Below, one piece after another: positions 1,506 through 53,261 of a DNA stretch of 60,197 bases. Every line of letters begins with the position of its first letter. The stretch's first letter is position 1. Location: positions 1 to 60,197 of the IMG/VR virus record IMGVR_UViG_3300025137_000038; one strand, given 5' to 3'. The position numbers and the translations under genes were made by a program. Under the pieces are notes generated by a model. That model made no database searches. It was given only the letters and a program-made list of their open reading frames with translations, and had not been told where the DNA came from. The DNA is from a virus (lineage: Duplodnaviria > Caudoviricetes).

Positions 1506-4016
1506 TTATTTTAATCCTGCTAGGAATAAAATTTCGTCTACTAAATGCTGGTCAGCCGGTGTTTCAACTATATCTGTTGATTCTGTTGATTCAGTTGACT
1601 CATTTTTCTTCTTGTCTTCTGCTTCTTTTTCGGCTTTTTCTTTTGCTTTTAGTTTTTTAACTTCTTCAGGAGTTCCGTCATAAGCGTCTTCTTCTTTGAC
1701 ATCTTCTTTTTCTTCTTCCTTACTATCGTCTTTTTTCTTACCTTTTTTAGCGTCAAGCATTTTTTGGAAAGCGGCTTTTTGTGCCGGACTTTGTGCTTCC
1801 TCAACTGTTTCGCCTTTGAAAGTGTATTCTTCTTTCATACCTAATTGTTGCATTACTTGTTTAACCATAGCACTAATATCACTTGAACCAAGTTCTTCCA
1901 TTGGTGCATGGAATTCAGCAACATCTTCAATAGTTGCTAATAAAGTTTGCATATCTGTATGTTTAAGTATGTTATCTAATGTAACTGGACTTGCAGTAAC
2001 ACGCCATTTAATTGCGTCTGCAATTTCGTCAACTTCATCTTGTGAATGTTCATTAGCGCCTGCCATTGCGTAACCTTCTGATTGTTTTTTCTCATCTGAT
2101 GTATCACCAGTAACTTTATATTTTTTACCGTCTACTTCAAATTCGTCTTTACCGTCATCGATTGCTTTTTTTCTAGCGTCTGTAAATTCATTTCCTTCTG
2201 GAACGTCTGCTTCATCTACACCATTATAGTTGTCGTAGAATTCAGATGCGCCTTCATCGTCTGCGTTTGGTCCACCATGCTTTTTCATAAACTGTTCTTT
2301 GCTCATGCTTTCAGCATCATCTTCCATTGCTCTTTTGACTGCACCTTCATTAGTGGCTCCTGTAACTTTTTGACAAATTGCATGAACTTTACCTTTTAAA
2401 TCTTCTGGTATATCATATCCGTCTAAATTTTCTTTTACCCATGCACAGATAATTGGACGAGCATCACCTTCTGGATTCTTGTCGCCTGCATCACCTAAAG
2501 CATCAAATAATTCGTCGTCACCTATAATACCGTAAATTGAACTTGTTGCATTATCGCCTTCTGCACCGAGGGGTAGTACATCTGCCATTAAGCCTTCTAG
2601 TTCACCTACTGCTTCTTCAGTATCTGGGATTGCCCAAGTACCTTCTGAAAGGTTTTCCATATAATCTTCATACTGGTCTTCCATCGATTTTGCTTTTAAA
2701 TCTCTTTTAGTTGGAATTTCAGTTACGTTTCCTTTTAAGTATTTAGATGCTAGTTGGTAAGCCGCTTTTTTATCTGCTGGATTATCCATAGAACCTAAGT
2801 CACTTATCTGTAAAGAAAGTGCATCGTCAACTGTACGTTTTGCTAACGACATAATAATTTTTCTAACAATACCATCTTGTGGATTCTCAGAAGTTTTTTG
2901 ATTTCTAATAACCATTTGTTTAATATGGTCAATATAATTTTTAATGTCTGCATCTTCTTCTGGATGCGGACGTAATTCTATTTTAGCACTTGGATCTTTT
3001 GCCAAATTGTGTGCCAATTCTTTATTACTCTCTTGTACTTTCATTTTATTAATCCCTCTAGCCAAATTCGGCAGTATTGTATCTACAATGTTATCTTTTT
3101 GAATACGGACTAACTTACTTCTAATGTCTTCTAAATCTGCTTGTTCAACATTATCTTCAGTTGGTCTATATTGTTCTACATAACTCTGATATCCTTTGGG
3201 TCTAGAGATAGTTTTTAATGTTTCTCTAATACCTTTATATCTTTCACGTGCTTGTTCAATAATTTTTGTTGCTTCTTCTATATTTGCAAAATTATCTGCA
3301 CGTTTAAATGCCTTAACAAATCTTTGTAAGTCGTAGGCTTCCTGAGTTAACTCATGTATATGTTGTCCGATTTCATCGTCATATGCACCTTCGCTTGTCA
3401 TATGTTGTGCGATAGCTCTACCGGCAATTAAACTTTTGAAAGGTAATTTAAATCTACCGTGTTCTCCGTTTTCAATAAACAAAGAATGTATTTGTCTACT
3501 ACGAGCACCACGAATAGTTTCATCAACAGGGTTTTTATGCTTAATTATTAAACGAACATTCTCACCAAAACTTTGATAAGATGTTTTTAATGTACCTGTT
3601 AGTTTGCTTTCAAACGTTACTTCTGAACTGTCGTAACTGTTATCATTTGCTTTGATATATGCATAATCAGTTTTATCTAATTGTTGCTTACCAATGTTAC
3701 GAACGTCAAAACTCATTAAATTTCTTTTTGCAAAAAATCTTAATTCTTTTAAGAATGAATACCAATCTTTTTTATCATCATAACGCATATCTTCTGTAAT
3801 ATTGTTATTATAATATATTACTAAAGAACTAGGATCTACGATATTTACAGTAACACTACCATAACTTTTAGCACTTCCACCGTATTCTAGTGTAAAAATT
3901 CTACCTTCACTAGACTCAACAGTGGTTACTGCCTGGCTATCTGCAATAGTCAGTTTATTAAATTTTTTGGCTAATACGCCATATAAGTCATTTGCTACTT
4001 TATTATGTATTTGCAT
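1506..4016 (-). CDS. Large hypothetical protein, probable internal head/core protein
   Basis: 836-aa ORF with an acidic low-complexity C-terminal half; ends ILFLAGLK like the scaffold; TAAATA box 5 nt upstream of the ATG. Confidence 0.55.
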   Translation of the reverse strand: MQIHNKVANDLYGVLAKKFNKLTIADSQAVTTVESSEGRIFTLEYGGSAKSYGSVTVNIVDPSSLVIYYNNNITEDMRYDDKKDWYSFLKELRFFAKRNLMSFDVRNIGKQQLDKTDYAYIKANDNSYDSSEVTFESKLTGTLKTSYQSFGENVRLIIKHKNPVDETIRGARSRQIHSLFIENGEHGRFKLPFKSLIAGRAIAQHMTSEGAYDDEIGQHIHELTQEAYDLQRFVKAFKRADNFANIEEATKIIEQARERYKGIRETLKTISRPKGYQSYVEQYRPTEDNVEQADLEDIRSKLVRIQKDNIVDTILPNLARGINKMKVQESNKELAHNLAKDPSAKIELRPHPEEDADIKNYIDHIKQMVIRNQKTSENPQDGIVRKIIMSLAKRTVDDALSLQISDLGSMDNPADKKAAYQLASKYLKGNVTEIPTKRDLKAKSMEDQYEDYMENLSEGTWAIPDTEEAVGELEGLMADVLPLGAEGDNATSSIYGIIGDDELFDALGDAGDKNPEGDARPIICAWVKENLDGYDIPEDLKGKVHAICQKVTGATNEGAVKRAMEDDAESMSKEQFMKKHGGPNADDEGASEFYDNYNGVDEADVPEGNEFTDARKKAIDDGKDEFEVDGKKYKVTGDTSDEKKQSEGYAMAGANEHSQDEVDEIADAIKWRVTASPVTLDNILKHTDMQTLLATIEDVAEFHAPMEELGSSDISAMVKQVMQQLGMKEEYTFKGETVEEAQSPAQKAAFQKMLDAKKGKKKDDSKEEEKEDVKEEDAYDGTPEEVKKLKAKEKAEKEAEDKKKNESTESTESTDIVETPADQHLVDEILFLAGLK

Positions 4017-39817: not shown

Positions 39818-40270
39818 TTAAGCGTCTTCTGTGAAGTCTGTATCGTCTGTACCTGATGCAGTATCGTCGTCACCTGCTTCTTCAAACTGTACTGCTCCAT
39901 CTGAACCTGAAACTGTGAAGTTCCATGGCTTAGATAAACCGTCTAATGCGTTAGATCCAGTAGCACTTGGTTTTGCTAGTGTTACTTTACGTCCTGCAAT
40001 TTTAGATACACCATAAGTTTCACCATCATCACCTTTTACAGAAATTGTCATTTCTGTACCAGTAACTGCGGCTGGTAGTTTACCAGTTACAAGTGTACGA
40101 GTGTATGCAGTACCAGGTGTTCCAGTTGCTTTAACTGAAAACTTTTTACTACCTAGTTGCTTTGCGATATATCCTTCAACAACGGCTGAACCGTTATGAA
40201 AGTTTACTTTAATTTCATTGCCACCTGCAGTAGGTACGCCGAAAAATCTTTTGTTTATTGGTCTTCCCAT
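39818..40270 (-). CDS. Probable capsid-associated structural protein
   Basis: 150 aa with its own TATAAATA promoter, strong RBS AAAGGAG and terminator; near the major capsid gene. Confidence 0.65.
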   Translation of the reverse strand: MGRPINKRFFGVPTAGGNEIKVNFHNGSAVVEGYIAKQLGSKKFSVKATGTPGTAYTRTLVTGKLPAAVTGTEMTISVKGDDGETYGVSKIAGRKVTLAKPSATGSNALDGLSKPWNFTVSGSDGAVQFEEAGDDDTASGTDDTDFTEDA

Positions 40271-40344
40271 TTTATTTCTCCTTTGTTACGTTCTATGTAA
40301 TACGAGGATGGCTCCCCATAAACTTATCTTATGATAAGCACTAC

Positions 40345-40352
40345 TATTTATA
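40345..40352 (-). promoter_or_regulatory. Late promoter TATAAATA
   Basis: Exact consensus, followed by a hairpin-rich leader. Confidence 0.75.
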
Positions 40353-40508
40353 CTATATACCTTGAAGTTTTGGATTGTTTGGTGCTAGTATATTCTTTTC
40401 AGCTCGGGGTCTTGACAGTGGTCTCTCCATTTGCTTTTTATGGATAGCCTTGTGTGCCAATTTTGTTTGTATTTTTTTACGAGCCGCTTCGAAGTCTCTA
40501 TGATTCAT
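40353..40508 (-). CDS. 51-aa basic peptide downstream of the glutamine riboswitch (IF7/GifA-like candidate)
   Basis: MNHRDFEAARKKIQTKLAHKAIHKKQMERPLSRPRAEKNILAPNNPKLQGI*; RBS AAGGAG 7 nt before the ATG; below the ORF-track length cutoff. Confidence 0.75.
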   Translation of the reverse strand: MNHRDFEAARKKIQTKLAHKAIHKKQMERPLSRPRAEKNILAPNNPKLQGI

Positions 40509-40533
40509 AACACTTCTCCTTTTTACAGTTAAA

Positions 40534-40582
40534 GTGCGTTCCTTCGCTTATGCTACTTCCGTCCTATAATAGGATGAACGTA
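40534..40582 (-). ncRNA. Glutamine riboswitch, glnA-motif class
   Basis: - strand: CGUUCA-UCCUA(UUA)UAGGA-CGGAAGUA-GC(AUAA)GC-GAAGGAACG-CAC. This is the three-way junction P1 CGUUC/GAACG, P2, E-loop (AGUA/GAA) and P3 of the glnA RNA consensus. Confidence 0.88.
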
Positions 40583-40586
40583 TTAA

Positions 40587-40594
40587 TATTTAGT
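40587..40594 (-). promoter_or_regulatory. Late promoter box ACTAAATA driving the riboswitch
   Basis: T4 late geometry predicts +1 at 40581, one nt before the aptamer P1. Confidence 0.65.
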
Positions 40595-40605
40595 CCAAAT
40601 TTAGT

Positions 40606-40634
40606 CAAAAAGAAAGGCCCCGGAGGGCCTTTCT
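40606..40634 (-). terminator. Intrinsic terminator of the major capsid transcript
   Basis: Same 10-bp stem as 30243-30266, with UCCG loop and U-tract. Confidence 0.9.
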
Positions 40635-40682
40635 AATATTGTCATGTTAGTTAACAATAATATCCAAAAAGGATAATATCTA

Positions 40683-49504: not shown

Positions 49505-50338
49505 ATGGAAAACAATCAAAACCCACTAGTAGGGTATTTTAGGAAACCAGAAGTTTATATTAGTCTTCCTTCAAAAGGCGACTTTTATGAACAGGGCGTT
49601 TTAGACTTGCCACCTAACAATGAAATTGGGATCTTCCCAATGACGGCTAGGGACGAGTTGGTACTTAAAACACCTGATGCATTACTTAATGGCGCTAGTA
49701 CCGTTGAAGTAATAAGAAGTTGTGTACCAGCAATCAGTGATCCTTGGAAAATACCAAGCCTGGATATGGATACTATATTAATAGGTATTCGTATTGCAAC
49801 ATACGGAGAAGAAATGGATATTACTATTACTTGTCCAAAGTGTGAAGAAAAAAATGAGTTTGCTATTAACCTAGGTGCTCTAATGGATCAAACAAAAAAA
49901 TGGAAGTTCGACGAAACCCTAGAAATAGGTGATATGAAAATTACATTTAGACCGTTAGAATATAAAGAAATGAATGCACAAAGTCTTCGTACATTTGAAG
50001 AAACAAAAATTATGAAAATAGTTAATGATGATCAAAGTGACGAAAATATGAAACGTGAAAAGTTTCAAGAAGCATTTCTAAAACTTACTGCACTAACAGT
50101 AGACCTTATTGGAAAAACAATTCACAAAATTGAAACTCCTGAAGGTATAGTTACTGATCGGAATCATATTTCCGAATTTGTACAAAACGTAGATAGAAAA
50201 ACATTCGCTGAAATTCAAAAGCATTTAGATTTACAAGGCGAAATTAATAAGTTTGAAAAGTTCGAAGGCAAATGTTCAAATTGTGAGAATCATTTAGAAA
50301 CTCCAATTATATTTGATAACGCAAGTTTTTTCGTATAA
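49505..50338 (+). CDS. gp26: Baseplate hub/tail assembly chaperone (gp26-like)
   Basis: YISLPSKG...PMTARDE...IRIATYGE...CPKC...CSNC...SFF; divergent from the TMP gene. Confidence 0.75.
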   Translation: MENNQNPLVGYFRKPEVYISLPSKGDFYEQGVLDLPPNNEIGIFPMTARDELVLKTPDALLNGASTVEVIRSCVPAISDPWKIPSLDMDTILIGIRIATYGEEMDITITCPKCEEKNEFAINLGALMDQTKKWKFDETLEIGDMKITFRPLEYKEMNAQSLRTFEETKIMKIVNDDQSDENMKREKFQEAFLKLTALTVDLIGKTIHKIETPEGIVTDRNHISEFVQNVDRKTFAEIQKHLDLQGEINKFEKFEGKCSNCENHLETPIIFDNASFFV

Positions 50339-50562
50339 GGCTTCTTAGTCTTAGCAATGAAGATATTGCGAAATTAGTCAGTGACTACGACAAAGAAGCC
50401 CGAATTATAAAAAAAGAACTAGCAAGAATAGTATGGTATATGCGAGGTGGTATCACTTTGGATCAGGCATACAATTTGTCGAATAGTGACTCTAAACAAA
50501 TTTCAGAAATTATCGAAGAGAATATTAAGAACGTTAAAAAAACTGGACTACCGTTAATATAA
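50326..50562 (+). CDS. -1 frame extension of the gp26-like gene (gp51-like segment), probably expressed by frameshift
   Basis: Open frame FFRIRLLSLSNEDIAKL...WYMRGGITLDQAY...KKTGLPLI*; no start codon until ATG 50440; begins at the slippery T TTT TTC. Confidence 0.65.
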   Translation, partial: FFRIRLLSLSNEDIAKLVSDYDKEARIIKKELARIVWYMRGGITLDQAYNLSNSDSKQISEIIEENIKNVKKTGLPLI

Positions 50563-50667
50563 TAAGATTCACATTCATAAGAGATATACTTCGTATATCT
50601 AACAACTTCACTATCGTTCGTTGTTATTTTTAATTAGAAATACATATAAGTTAAGAGCGAAGCGATA

Positions 50668-51035
50668 GTCATCATGTAGATTGTTTCAGTCAGACGGAAC
50701 CTGTTTTACGGTTCCGCCCTGTCTTCATGTGAGTTCGCCCCAGCCAGACATTATTGGAAATAGGTGTTTTATCGCAACTCCATGGGTTCTAGTCTTTCCC
50801 GTACCTATACTGATCCTGCGTTAACAGTCTGTAACCTCGTTCCGATTGTTACAGTTTTTAAGAGTTATGTGCGTTTGTCATACGTTAGCATTCGTACTAC
50901 ACCAATCCACGTCCCAATTCTTTTGATGGACATTCACGGTCTGCCGTGTTTCATAGTGTGTTGCGTGTCTTATATCTCTATAAGTTTTTCCACAGTGGAA
51001 TATTAAACTGGCCCACTAACCTTAAGTGCTAATTG
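50668..51035 (-). ncRNA. Candidate large structured non-coding RNA (family not recognised)
   Basis: Many local hairpins plus long-range complementarities; G-U pairs favour the - strand; no credible ORF. Confidence 0.5.
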
Positions 51036-51041
51036 ATTTGC

Positions 51042-51551
51042 CTATGCACACAGAGTCTTAACTCTGTCTGCGTTTCTTTGCCAAAATTCGTCGAAGCCTG
51101 TAATGAGCCATGTTTTGTGTTTGGGGGAATTATATGTGAATTGTCTTGTTGTGATTAATTGGTGTGTTGAGGGAGTTGCTATATATTTGCCTTTGTTATT
51201 AAACTTCATTATTAGTATATTGAAGTCACCATCATCTGCCGCGTCCATTAATTGGTCCAGCCAGTCATCCAGCATTCGAACCTGTGGGGAAGTTAACAGT
51301 TGATGAAAAGGAAAGTCTTTATACGATTTGCATTCTGCATTAAATTTTGGAAATGATTGCCCAGGAACAATGTCCCCTTTGAATCCACGTACTTGACCTT
51401 CGTGTAATACTTCTTTACGGACAGTATTAGATCCGCCTACATAGGCGCCAGAGCCTGGTGCTCTAATAAAAGATTCTTGATATAGATCAGATAAGAAACG
51501 TGCAACGTCTCTTTCCCAATTACTACCTTTTGCTTTTTGTTTGCTTGGCAT
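51042..51551 (-). CDS. Holliday junction resolvase-like PD-(D/E)XK nuclease (Hjc-like)
   Basis: KAKGSNWERDVA...RAPGSGA...GDI...AECK. Confidence 0.8.
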   Translation of the reverse strand: MPSKQKAKGSNWERDVARFLSDLYQESFIRAPGSGAYVGGSNTVRKEVLHEGQVRGFKGDIVPGQSFPKFNAECKSYKDFPFHQLLTSPQVRMLDDWLDQLMDAADDGDFNILIMKFNNKGKYIATPSTHQLITTRQFTYNSPKHKTWLITGFDEFWQRNADRVKTLCA

Positions 51552-51765
51552 TCTTCTTCCTATGTTTGTTTAACAATAACACCTTCTGGTGGTACTCGTC
51601 AATCTTTTTTTCTGCATAGAAAGGAAATAATGTTGGAACAATTCCATGTATGATGCTTATAATACCCGTAAGTATCAAATCCAAACCTGCCACTATAGCA
51701 AACTTGGTGTGTGCAAAATACGATTTTCCGGCTGTTCTTAAATGTGCCCTAATTGCCCTTATCAT
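51523..51765 (-). CDS. Small membrane-associated protein (DUF6356-like)
   Basis: HL...SYFAH...A...IHGIVP.LF pattern. Confidence 0.5.
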   Translation of the reverse strand: MIRAIRAHLRTAGKSYFAHTKFAIVAGLDLILTGIISIIHGIVPTLFPFYAEKKIDEYHQKVLLLNKHRKKNAKQTKSKR

Positions 51766-53080
51766 AGATTCCCTTTAATTTATTGATGTTCGGTTTACCC
51801 AGAACGTTCAGCTCTATTGGTGTAACTAATTTATCGTGTGTTATACCATTATCATCGAGTTTCTGAATCAACTGCGGAACTTCGAAGTCTTTGTGATGTA
51901 AAACCACTACAACGTGTGTCTGCGAAGTGCTGAATATACAACAGTAACCATTTAACGAATATGGTACAAGTTGTTGTGGATTAATAAGACTATCATCAAT
52001 TCTTATTAAATCACTGTTTCTTTTTTCAAAGTAAAACGTATTTCCGTCTGCACTTACTACATCTTGAGTTACAAATAAATCCACAGGCTTGTCGTTTATT
52101 GTTTGACATAAATGACTGCTACCTTTGATTGTAAGTATGTCTTCATCATCAACCGTATATTCGCCTGATTCGTCAATAATGTAACCCATCTCACTTTCGT
52201 TATATTCACTAAGGTTTTCTATATTAACAACCTTATGTATAACAGGAGGTAAACATTCAGTTAATCCGTAAATGACTGCAACGTTTTTAACTCCTTCATT
52301 CTTTATTAATCTCCTAACAAAATGTATAGGAATAGTACTACCACCAGTAAGTACCCAATTTACACAACTTAAATCTAAATATTGTAAACCTGGATAAGAT
52401 TCAAAGTGTGAAGGAAATATTAACATTATAGTAGGTTTATATTTCTCTATAAGCTCTTTGTCGTAACAATTTGCTAATGGTGGTAAAATAATCTTTTTGC
52501 TAGAAAACAATGCAGGAAAAAAGTAAACACTGCTTACACCCAGGTGTACAATGTTATGAAAAAACCAACTAGTGTTTTCTCCTTGCCAGTATTGTTTAAT
52601 ACTTTCTTGAGTAGCACTCCATATACTTTCATGAGTATGAGAAATACATTTAGGTACTCCTGTACTACCACTTGTTAATGCTTCTACTAAAATTTCTGAA
52701 TGATTAATAGTATATTTTTCATTAGACTCAACAACTTCTGCTTCAATATGATTAACATTAGTTGCAGTAACTTTACATGGTTGAATACCACGTGTAATAA
52801 ATGTTTTTATATTTCGTCTAGAGATATATTCGTTAGTAATATTGTGTTCGCCACTTATAACAATTATAAGTCCAAAGTCAATAGCCGCGAATACAGCCGC
52901 CAAGTGATGTGAATCTTCTTGCATAGCAAGACCAATTCTATCTCCTTTTACTAAGGCGGCTTCTCGGAACAGTTGTTGATACCCAGAAGCAAGACTCATT
53001 AATTGAGATTTACTTATCTGGGTATCATTTATACAATCAACTATTTCAAAATTATTAGATAATTTTGTAATAGAAATCAT
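51749..53080 (-). CDS. ANL-superfamily adenylate-forming enzyme (AMP-binding, acyl-CoA synthetase-like)
   Basis: TSGSTGVPK (A3), YGLTE (A5), TQD (A7), RNSDLIR (A8), GK (A10); likely start MISITK at 53080. Confidence 0.8.
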   Translation of the reverse strand: MISITKLSNNFEIVDCINDTQISKSQLMSLASGYQQLFREAALVKGDRIGLAMQEDSHHLAAVFAAIDFGLIIVISGEHNITNEYISRRNIKTFITRGIQPCKVTATNVNHIEAEVVESNEKYTINHSEILVEALTSGSTGVPKCISHTHESIWSATQESIKQYWQGENTSWFFHNIVHLGVSSVYFFPALFSSKKIILPPLANCYDKELIEKYKPTIMLIFPSHFESYPGLQYLDLSCVNWVLTGGSTIPIHFVRRLIKNEGVKNVAVIYGLTECLPPVIHKVVNIENLSEYNESEMGYIIDESGEYTVDDEDILTIKGSSHLCQTINDKPVDLFVTQDVVSADGNTFYFEKRNSDLIRIDDSLINPQQLVPYSLNGYCCIFSTSQTHVVVVLHHKDFEVPQLIQKLDDNGITHDKLVTPIELNVLGKPNINKLKGIYDKGN

Positions 53081-53084
53081 AAAT

Positions 53085-53261
53085 TTACATACTGTTCTTT
53101 TTTTCTTGGATCTCGGCTCTTCTTGCTTTCGCAAGTTTACCCATTTCACCTAAAGCCTTACGAGCTCTTGCCGCCGCGGCTTTTACGCCTTTGGTTTCAA
53201 ATGCTTCGTTTTCTTTAAGGTAGTTGTCGTAGTGTGCTACGATATCATCATGTATTGCCAT
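53085..53261 (-). CDS. Hc1/histone H1-like small basic protein
   Basis: ENEAFETKGVKAAAARARKALGEMGKLAKARRAEIQEKK; RBS AGGAG before MAIHDD. Confidence 0.7.
   Translation of the reverse strand: MAIHDDIVAHYDNYLKENEAFETKGVKAAAARARKALGEMGKLAKARRAEIQEKKNSM

Follow-up and report, generated by a model that had tools for sequence, protein, structure and literature searches.

What occupies the longest gene-free gap in a phage genome fragment, and does it belong with the recombination genes behind which it lies? The question is raised by a virus record of the Caudoviricetes (Duplodnaviria; IMG/VR record IMGVR_UViG_3300025137_000038), whose entire 60,197 bases constitute the window analyzed here and whose completeness is put at 16% by CheckV. 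Between positions 50563 and 51041 lie 479 nucleotides without a credible gene, the next-longest such gap measuring 412 nucleotides. A first-pass annotation, made from the sequence alone, had singled out positions 50668-51035 as the longest noncoding stretch of the window, had described it as less AT-rich than other spacers, and had proposed for it a large structured phage RNA on the minus strand, downstream of a resolvase. We report that the gap almost certainly carries such an RNA, about 460 nucleotides long, and that this RNA belongs, as a divergent member, to a large family from which Rfam covers one optional domain only.

The dimensions of the gap depend on what is counted as a gene. Its limits are set here by a homologue of a small open reading frame (ORF) that ends at 50562 and is 72 amino acids long in relatives, and by a nuclease gene that ends at 51042; a crude ORF map gives 425 nucleotides instead because it retains a spurious ORF of 80 amino acids. 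The nuclease belongs to the PDDEXK_15 family and is annotated as a Holliday-junction resolvase in relatives. The remark on base composition is likewise borne out, as the G+C fraction is 0.392 in the gap and 0.427 in the span first marked, compared with 0.362 in the window and 0.23-0.35 in most other spacers. For annotation, the RNA would account for the largest apparently “empty” stretch in a conserved position of these phage genomes.

Evidence for a structured RNA on the minus strand

Folding of the single sequence is better than that of shuffled controls on the minus strand (z-score -2.31, none of 100 shuffles as good) and less so on the plus strand (z-score -1.37, 8 of 100 as good). As single-sequence folding is only modestly above shuffles, the case for an RNA rests on comparison. 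With the nuclease protein as query, 80 loci were fetched from IMG/VR; in 10 of them the gap is 71-97% identical to that of the window, and hairpin stems change on both sides. RNAalifold applied to seven sequences drew 99 pairs, 21 of them with compensatory change. More distant kin came from a pattern for the 3′ core of the RNA, described below, and 29 distinct sequences that share the window's type of 5′ domain make up the alignment A3. On A3, RNAalifold unaided drew 51 pairs, 31 with compensatory change, and an unbiased scan of all column pairs revealed further helices, which are missing from the RNAalifold drawing because they cross other helices.

The final model on A3 comprises 72 pairs in 15 helices, with three pseudoknots. 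By counts that flatter the model, because it was picked on the same alignment, 95.1% of 2071 cells are paired compared with 78.4 ± 0.5% in shuffles, both sides change at 47 pairs where 34.3 are expected (none of 500 shuffles reaches either value), the covariation score is 0.535 compared with 0.224, and sliding the partners by one to three columns leaves 35-39% of cells paired. Among the same helix cells 168 are G-U and 33 are A-C, an excess that identifies the minus strand as the RNA strand, as first proposed and in line with the better folding of that strand. No conserved reading frame was found in the aligned sequences, whose longest ORFs measure 31-87 amino acids (median 55) on strands that vary from one sequence to another, and only 157 of 593 gap runs come in multiples of three. 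The RNA is not protein-coding, and that it is a real structured noncoding RNA can hardly be doubted. Conservation, covariation in related spacers and the absence of a conserved reading frame uphold the central proposal of the first-pass annotation. Its view that the hallmarks of tRNA, tmRNA, RNase P, and group I and group II introns are lacking also agrees with the searches made here: ARAGORN reports no tRNA or tmRNA gene at the locus, and no Rfam family matches the gap region at the gathering score or at E ≤ 10 (50300-51300 scanned at E ≤ 10).

The RNA is organized as a 5′ domain, a central knotted domain, and a 3′ core, followed after a variable linker by two further hairpins. Conservation starts at GGCAAAUC, which overlaps the final base of the nuclease stop codon, and stops past the terminal hairpin; these limits of conservation are the predicted ends of the transcript. 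From the 5′ end of the RNA, its elements are as follows.

50583-51042, minus strand: whole RNA gene, about 460 nucleotides, from alignments A1-A3
50880-51042, minus strand: 5′ domain, with helices H1, H1b, H2, H3, H4 and pseudoknot PK1
51032-51027/50890-50885, minus strand: PK1, UUAGCA with the H4 loop UGCUAA; 3 of 6 pairs changed on both sides, 98.9% of cells paired
51017-51013/50998-50994, minus strand: H1 in the 5′ domain, with covarying pairs
50993-50991/50967-50965, minus strand: H1b in the 5′ domain, enclosing H2
50984-50980/50973-50969, minus strand: H2 in the 5′ domain
50959-50953/50905-50899, minus strand: H3 in the 5′ domain, closing a junction of two hairpins
50897-50893/50884-50880, minus strand: H4 in the 5′ domain; 5 of 5 pairs changed on both sides
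50755-50866, minus strand: central knotted domain, with LR1, H5, PK2, H7 and H8
50866-50861/50781-50776, minus strand: LR1, the long-range pairing AACUCU with GGAGUU, crossing H7; 6 of 6 pairs changed on both sides
50854-50850/50833-50829, minus strand: H5, with the invariant loop ..GGAACGARG; 5 of 5 pairs changed on both sides
50811-50809/50793-50791, minus strand: PK2, crossing H7 and H8; 3 of 3 pairs changed on both sides
50808-50803/50765-50760, minus strand: H7 (AUAGGU/ACCUAU) in the central domain
50800-50798/50786-50784, minus strand: H8 in the central domain
50664-50769, minus strand: 3′ core, common to the whole family; match to the covariance model R1 with 66.2 bits, the window being part of the seed
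about 50750-50746/50724-50720, minus strand: H13 (UGUCU/AGACA), read by eye from the alignment
50723-50733, minus strand: box 1 of the 3′ core, CUC plus word, CUCACAUGAAG
50719-50710/50701-50692, minus strand: H10; 7 of 7 pairs covary over 44 sequences
50670-50680, minus strand: box 2, UCU plus word, UCUACAUGAUG, the word being that of box 1 bar one letter
50601-50625, minus strand: H11, stem AACAAC/GUUGUU, with the conserved loop GARCG-NNA-GYGAA
50583-50599, minus strand: terminal hairpin H12, GAUAUA-CGAAG-UAUAUC, without a U-tail; 6 of 6 pairs changed on both sides

In the central domain, PK2 is formed by the three bases immediately 5′ of H7, which pair with the loop of the GGG/CCC hairpin (H8). 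The order within the 3′ core is H13, box 1, H10, UGAC, box 2. Inside the H11 loop, two base pairs (50617-50616/50611-50610) form an inner helix beneath a GNRA-type tetraloop; each of these pairs varies on both sides (GC to and from AU, CG to and from UA), and the same module is present in the bacterial copies of the RNA. H12 is likely to represent the 3′ end of the RNA or a terminator.

Against this model, the span given in the first pass proves right in its location and short at its 3′ limit, the RNA reaching about 85 nucleotides further, to 50583. Five of the eight helices proposed there hold: CUUAUA/UAUAAG is upheld by compensatory changes, CACGG/CCGUG becomes CACUC/GAGUG and CACAC/GUGUG in relatives, CUGUAAC/GUUACAG changes on both sides at 5 of 5 pairs and UAGGU/ACCUA at 3 of 6, and GGGCGGAACC/GGUUCCGUCU, with one-sided changes only in close relatives, changes on both sides at 7 of 7 pairs when the whole family is considered. 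Two are lost. In UGGAAA/UUUCCA the two initial letters take part in a different covarying helix (GUG/CAC) and 5 of the 29 sequences break one pair, and in CGCAAC/GUUGCG three pairs are standard in just 11-16 of the 29. From GGCCAG/CUGGCU only an invariant GCC/GGC is left, which can give no covariation signal, and one pair fails in 17 of the 29. The pseudoknot suspected at GUUGCG was correctly placed and wrongly partnered, for it is LR1 that crosses H7, and two further pseudoknots are present beyond this crossing.

Two other pairings were considered and dropped. A long-range pairing drawn by RNAalifold, GGUUAGUGGGCC/GGUUCCGUCUGAC, has a 5′ strand that overlaps H1, whose pairs covary; in one locus (L138) it is broken while H1 is preserved by double changes. 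A local hairpin at the 5′ end, UUAGC/GUUAG, gave way to PK1, which is Watson-Crick in all four sequence types.

Contigs from metatranscriptomes lie over the region in four of four runs, from four studies. One contig of 1656 nucleotides extends over 50343-51700, spanning the whole RNA and reaching into the nuclease gene; three of the four runs offer read-sized pieces only, with the 3′ part of the RNA uncovered. At 50343 the 1656-nucleotide contig, from run X1, runs into a sequencing-adapter tail, so that a library fragment ended there, inside the convergent small ORF.

The RNA family and its known relatives

How widely is this RNA distributed? A hidden Markov model (HMM) of the 3′ domain finds a match downstream of the nuclease gene, on the same strand, in 54 of the 80 nuclease-fetched loci. 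A pattern for the core, consisting of ..ACUC plus a word, a hairpin, UGAC, and ..AUCU plus the same word, matches the window's kin and 41 of 85 loci. It matched at least 120 viral contigs, with 119 of the 120 matches listed confirmed by the HMM, and 47 stretches in genome contigs, mostly from metagenome bins, of which 21 were so confirmed. The 3′ domain is present in at least 205 loci, which form at least 132 clusters at about 90% identity. The viral members come from lakes and seas and belong to uncultured jumbo and T4-like phages. The 5′ domains are of at least three types, combined with the 3′ cores in mosaic fashion.

Membership of the window in this family was assessed without circularity by an nhmmer search with an HMM of 25 sequences from outside subgroup A, a set that leaves out the window and its close kin. 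The search gave a single match in the window, at 50755-50572 on the minus strand (E 5.9e-10, 33.2 bits). The window's RNA has the core with twin words (6 of 7 word letters identical), homology over the 3′ domain, and the terminal module, and it also occupies the family's place in the genome, after recombination-nuclease genes and convergent with a small ORF and a baseplate-hub gene. Homologues of its 3′ domain are RNAs that occupy this same genomic position in well over 100 uncultured jumbo and T4-like phages, and RNAs of bacterial chromosomes.

One type of 5′ domain had been described before. The Rfam family RF01718 (Polynucleobacter-1) matches locus L017 at 3528-3663 with 120.5 bits, over the first 136 nucleotides of the RNA and immediately 5′ of the twin-box core, and it lies likewise 5′ of the core in L253 and L254; in contigs of Polynucleobacter bins, RF01718 and the core are about 200 nucleotides apart on one strand. 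The 5′ third of the homologous RNA in subgroup D is the Polynucleobacter-1 motif. The table of the paper that introduced it rates Polynucleobacter-1 as likely an RNA and likely cis-regulatory, from Burkholderiales of fresh water and estuary (Weinberg et al. 2010, PMC2864571), and it has been listed there since 2010 as a candidate RNA without an assigned function. In the literature searched, we found no other paper that names the motif.

In the window, RF01718 (gathering score 37 bits) has no match at E ≤ 10, either in the gap region or in the whole record. A comparison by eye suggests a diverged form of Polynucleobacter-1 in the window's 5′ domain: the layout is similar, with the second hairpin and the helix that closes two hairpins, and the loop of the first hairpin, GCCAG..AAUAU, resembles the motif's GGCCAAUAUCU, whereas the third hairpin of the motif's five-hairpin layout is absent and PK1 is an addition. 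A further difference is that the 141-position Rfam model ends before the central and 3′ domains, about 300 nucleotides that make up the conserved part of the family. The window's RNA and the RNAs that bear Polynucleobacter-1 very probably constitute one family. If so, the 141-nucleotide Rfam motif is an optional part of a far larger RNA with several knots, which is common among uncultured jumbo and T4-like phages from lakes and seas and is present in bacterial chromosomes as well. The novelty claimed in the first pass is accordingly partial. The window has no Rfam match, the larger RNA with its twin-box 3′ core has no Rfam model, and no description of it was found in the literature searched, whereas in a sister subgroup the 5′ third was already known as RF01718.

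Large ornate noncoding RNAs of bacteria and phages, including GOLLD, ROOL, OLE, and HEARO, have come to light by comparative genomics; they are often phage-borne and all have Rfam models. These models do not match the window at E ≤ 10, and the RNAs differ from the one described here in size, hosts, and motifs. We know of none among them with matched twin words. Large RNAs of such complexity are rare and have repeatedly been a route to new biochemistry.

Judged by the gp46-like, hub, and nuclease proteins, the closest cultured relatives of the window's phage are the jumbo myophages PA5oct, Atu_ph07, Phosso, SCTP-2, and the RaK2/121Q group. No cultured carrier of the RNA was found. In 50,697 records of cultured phages, blastn detected nothing similar to the window's RNA or to representatives of three other subgroups; at the resolvase loci of PA5oct, SCTP-2, and Phosso no nhmmer match fell below E 1.9; the lowest E with R1 was 0.33 over the complete genomes of these three phages, 0.29 on RaK2, and 1.19 on 121Q; and RF01718 had no match in RaK2, 121Q, or PA5oct. 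Escherichia phage 121Q has an unannotated gap of 836 nucleotides, flanked by endonuclease VII on one side and by the small ORF and hub on the other (L282:4010-4845, positions 326509-327344 of its record), with a fold z-score of -2.73, a TATAAT-like (-10-like) box, a U-tailed terminator, and a repeated GAUGAGCA. Rfam gives no match of note in this gap, which is a syntenic candidate only, matched to the window's RNA by its place.

PA5oct itself expresses large RNAs. Its ncRNA001-004 are long noncoding RNAs defined by RNA sequencing, abundant, 236-619 nucleotides in length, and without an assigned role, and ncRNA002, of 451 nucleotides, accounts for about 5% of phage reads (PMC7318152). A cultured jumbo-phage relative of the window's phage thus has abundant large RNAs, but their genes are located elsewhere, the terminal repeat containing two of them. 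As a homologue ncRNA002 was rejected, no likeness being seen by eye and neither R1 nor RF01718 having a match in the PA5oct genome.

An isolate does appear among the bacterial sequences. Three contigs of Nereida ignava CECT 5292, 1.3-4 kb in length (L087, L090, L124), each carry a twin-box core; nhmmer matches all three, and R1 scores 52-53 bits for L090 and L124, L087 being outside the R1 search. These copies could represent a multicopy element or phage DNA in the culture.

Twin words, neighboring enzymes, and possible roles

What might such an RNA do? The feature of most direct bearing is the pair of boxes, ..ACUC plus word and ..AUCU plus word, on either side of hairpin H10. Every member of the family has one word of 7-8 letters present twice, with many different words between lineages. 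Of 126 representatives, 122 have identical 7-mers within the RNA. The mutual information between a variable position and its counterpart in the other box is 0.84-1.11 bits, and with no other column does it exceed 0.42 bits. The chromosomal copies in Polynucleobacter have very different words, yet the words are matched inside each RNA. The two words thus covary as direct repeats, a relationship that pairing between the boxes would not generate; either concerted evolution or a reader outside the RNA is needed to explain it.

The explanation that we consider best, and that in our judgment falls just on the probable side, is a stable, independently folding noncoding RNA of about 460 nucleotides on the minus strand that serves as an RNA partner of recombination enzymes. 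Its transcription would accompany or directly follow that of the recombination-nuclease genes (gp47, gp46, and the resolvase-type nuclease), and it would end at its own terminal hairpin. It would act in trans, as the RNA part of a ribonucleoprotein working with DNA recombination enzymes, and the twin words would be a specificity element read twice by an outside partner, more likely a nucleic acid than a protein. That they are read by base pairing we regard as rather unlikely. Matched twin words behave like a specificity code, and minimal nuclease or recombinase neighbors are always present, which makes the function directly testable.

The same pair of words invites other interpretations. In a self-processing RNA, the boxes would be matched sites of cleavage or ligation that release or rejoin the hairpin between them; identical words flanking a conserved hairpin would suit two sites served by one internal guide, and the size, the pseudoknots, the GNRA loops, and the invariant unpaired stretches are typical of large ribozymes. 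The words, however, covary with no column within 140 nucleotides upstream or 170 nucleotides downstream, so that no internal guide is seen there; ribozyme and intron families of Rfam have no match at E ≤ 10; and flanking exons are absent on the minus strand, because the next gene is convergent. The RNA-library contigs cross both boxes without a joint, while giving no evidence either way on processing. A ribozyme is on these grounds very unlikely, and nothing that we found speaks for it or for the replication primer that the first pass had also suggested.

Alternatively, the RNA could be a decoy or sponge for a host or phage protein, such as a defense nuclease, an RNA chaperone, or an enzyme acting on branched DNA, with the boxes as the sites of a dimer. 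Two identical sites about 55-85 nucleotides apart fit a dimeric binder, other large phage RNAs without an assigned role exist, and the RNA is conserved in many jumbo phages. The preference of the bound protein would nevertheless have to shift at four or more word positions repeatedly, up to the very different words of the bacterial copies, and PADLOC recognizes no defense family among the neighbors, reporting only weak homing-endonuclease models for the GIY-YIG protein that adjoins the RNA in many loci. A decoy role therefore carries a low probability.

The neighbors of the RNA are of two kinds, those of phages and those of bacterial chromosomes. In the phages the gene order is gp47, gp46, small nuclease, RNA, and then the convergent small ORF and hub, the genes next to the RNA in the window being the following.

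51042-51551, minus strand: PDDEXK_15 nuclease of 169 amino acids (Pfam PF24608, E 1.6e-23), the same-strand upstream neighbor of the RNA
49505-50338, plus strand: baseplate-hub gene (Pfam T4_baseplate), convergent with the PDDEXK_15 nuclease gene

Among the 205 listed loci, a gp46-like gene lies upstream in 144 and a convergent hub gene downstream in 140. The gene directly upstream encodes a 144-amino acid GIY-YIG domain of the SegE type in 105 of these loci and PDDEXK_15 in 69. A radical-SAM-like family, with CxxxCxxC near the N terminus, is found further upstream in 54 listed loci.

In bacteria, RF01718 exceeds its cut-off in 13 of 121 genomes of one genus, sites in complete chromosomes included. 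On the Polynucleobacter chromosomes the RNA is situated between a divergent DUF6641 gene and a downstream tyrosine recombinase of 188 amino acids in six of six loci examined. This recombinase consists of the catalytic domain only, and a homologous 188-amino acid protein (40-56% identity) is encoded near the RNA in three loci of Rhodobacteraceae. DUF6641 gene, RNA, and recombinase recur as a unit of about 2 kb at different places in the chromosome (L266-L271; for example L269:9384-11396); two genomes have two copies, and in G013 the unit recurs at 72% identity. A search of 120 other genomes recognized no empty site of the module. The genes flanking the module match in G055 and G021 and the middle of the RNA differs, which may represent another type of 5′ domain.

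One bacterial locus (L267) has a third copy of its own 8-letter word about 2.7 kb downstream of the RNA start, beyond the recombinase gene. This copy, a single case, is flanked by the inverted arms GAGUU and AACUU, and it could reflect chance or a recombination site. It bears on the possibility that selection acts on the DNA, the boxes being recombination or cleavage sites of the neighboring enzyme or part of a replication origin, with the fold incidental. Tyrosine recombinases require identical overlap regions in both sites, a need that would explain identical words, and a recombinase or nuclease gene is always nearby. The excess of G-U over A-C, the GNRA-capped helices, and the three covarying pseudoknots indicate instead that an RNA fold is under selection; as direct repeats only about 55-85 nucleotides apart, the boxes are too close for synapsis; and a recombinase is absent from the phage loci. 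Of the alternatives discussed here, this one seems to us the most improbable.

The position of the RNA also bears on a cis-acting role. As a 3′ untranslated element of the nuclease operon, it would shield the mRNA against 3′ exonucleases, terminate transcription between the convergent genes, or tune nuclease expression, and would have no role in trans. It begins at the stop codon of the upstream gene, without a consensus promoter, and closes with a hairpin between convergent genes, and the table of PMC2864571 rates Polynucleobacter-1 as likely cis-regulatory. Yet 460 nucleotides with three pseudoknots, invariant loops, and twin words far exceed the needs of stabilization or termination; genes as unrelated as GIY-YIG, PDDEXK_15, and radical-SAM-like ORFs precede it; and the bacterial RNA stands apart, between the divergent DUF6641 gene and the recombinase gene. 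A purely cis-acting element is thus improbable, if somewhat less so than a ribozyme or a decoy.

Returning to an RNA partner of recombination enzymes, the presence of minimal DNA-cutting or DNA-joining enzymes beside the RNA in two very different settings favors a functional link to the neighboring nuclease or recombinase, at modest odds, and we propose such a link tentatively. No paper that ties an RNA to these enzymes was found in the literature searched. The nearest analogies are the bridge or seek RNAs of IS110/IS1111 and the omega RNAs of TnpB/IscB, which are described as structured RNA partners of DNA enzymes (PMC11208158, PMC10691335). They resemble the present RNA in being encoded next to a small DNA-cutting or DNA-joining enzyme and in carrying short variable specificity segments within a conserved scaffold. 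The comparison is one of analogy, as the neighbors here are GIY-YIG, PDDEXK_15, and a tyrosine-recombinase catalytic domain rather than DEDD/IS110, RuvC, or HNH, and no target matching the words was found in the fetched loci or the window.

By the same analogy, the RNA could be a programmable cofactor of DNA enzymes reduced to their catalytic domains, its words base-pairing with one and the same short sequence at two DNA sites or in both products of one; we give this idea little chance of being right. The words would then set the site of strand exchange by the 188-amino acid recombinase in bacteria and the cut site of the GIY-YIG or PDDEXK enzyme in phages. If true, this would extend a principle like that of bridge RNAs to enzyme folds not known to use RNA guides.

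A number of observations weigh against a trans-acting partner of recombination enzymes and against parts of the family on which it is built. The two words of the window itself differ by one letter. A word search in the window returns the two boxes alone and no complement, and in the fetched loci neither the word nor its complement is in excess elsewhere, complements numbering 78 where 68 are expected (control maximum 90). The RNA-library contigs, which give no strand, ends, or level and may reflect DNA carry-over, are weak support for transcription, and a consensus scan for promoters and terminators gives six promoter-like sites where 4.9 are expected and no terminators. The enzyme link may be one of synteny only: endonuclease VII is found in the same place in RaK2 and 121Q, and PDDEXK_15 in PA5oct, as expected of a phage resolvase, and the junction resolvase may have been swapped several times among folds. 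In subgroup B (L016:3507-4310, L025:3513-4547), an extra gene of 267-346 amino acids intervenes between the PDDEXK_15 gene and the RNA. Finally, R1 misses the Polynucleobacter chromosomal copies at E ≤ 1, their kinship being based on RF01718, on weak nhmmer matches, and on motifs read by eye.

Other features of the locus

The small ORF that limits the gap on its far side has a peculiar structure in the window. In relatives it is a separate gene started by ATG, which overlaps the hub stop codon in L011. Its homologue in the window (50320-50562, plus strand) has no ATG, GTG, or TTG before 50440, in a frame that is open from 50320 and is the -1 frame relative to the hub gene. The 3′ end of the hub gene, AGT TTT TTC GTA TAA, contains a slippery-looking run. 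A frameshift fusion and an unusual start are both possible.

The second-largest gene-free gap of the window (40271-40682) contains two RNA elements known to Rfam.

40268-40338, minus strand: freshwater-2 motif, 58 bits
40533-40582, minus strand: glutamine riboswitch aptamer, 56.5 bits

Two genes on the minus strand, placed between gp46 and the nuclease gene, encode an AMP-binding (adenylate-forming) enzyme of 466 amino acids (51749-53149) and a DUF6356 protein (51523-51765), an unusual cargo for a gp46-nuclease module.

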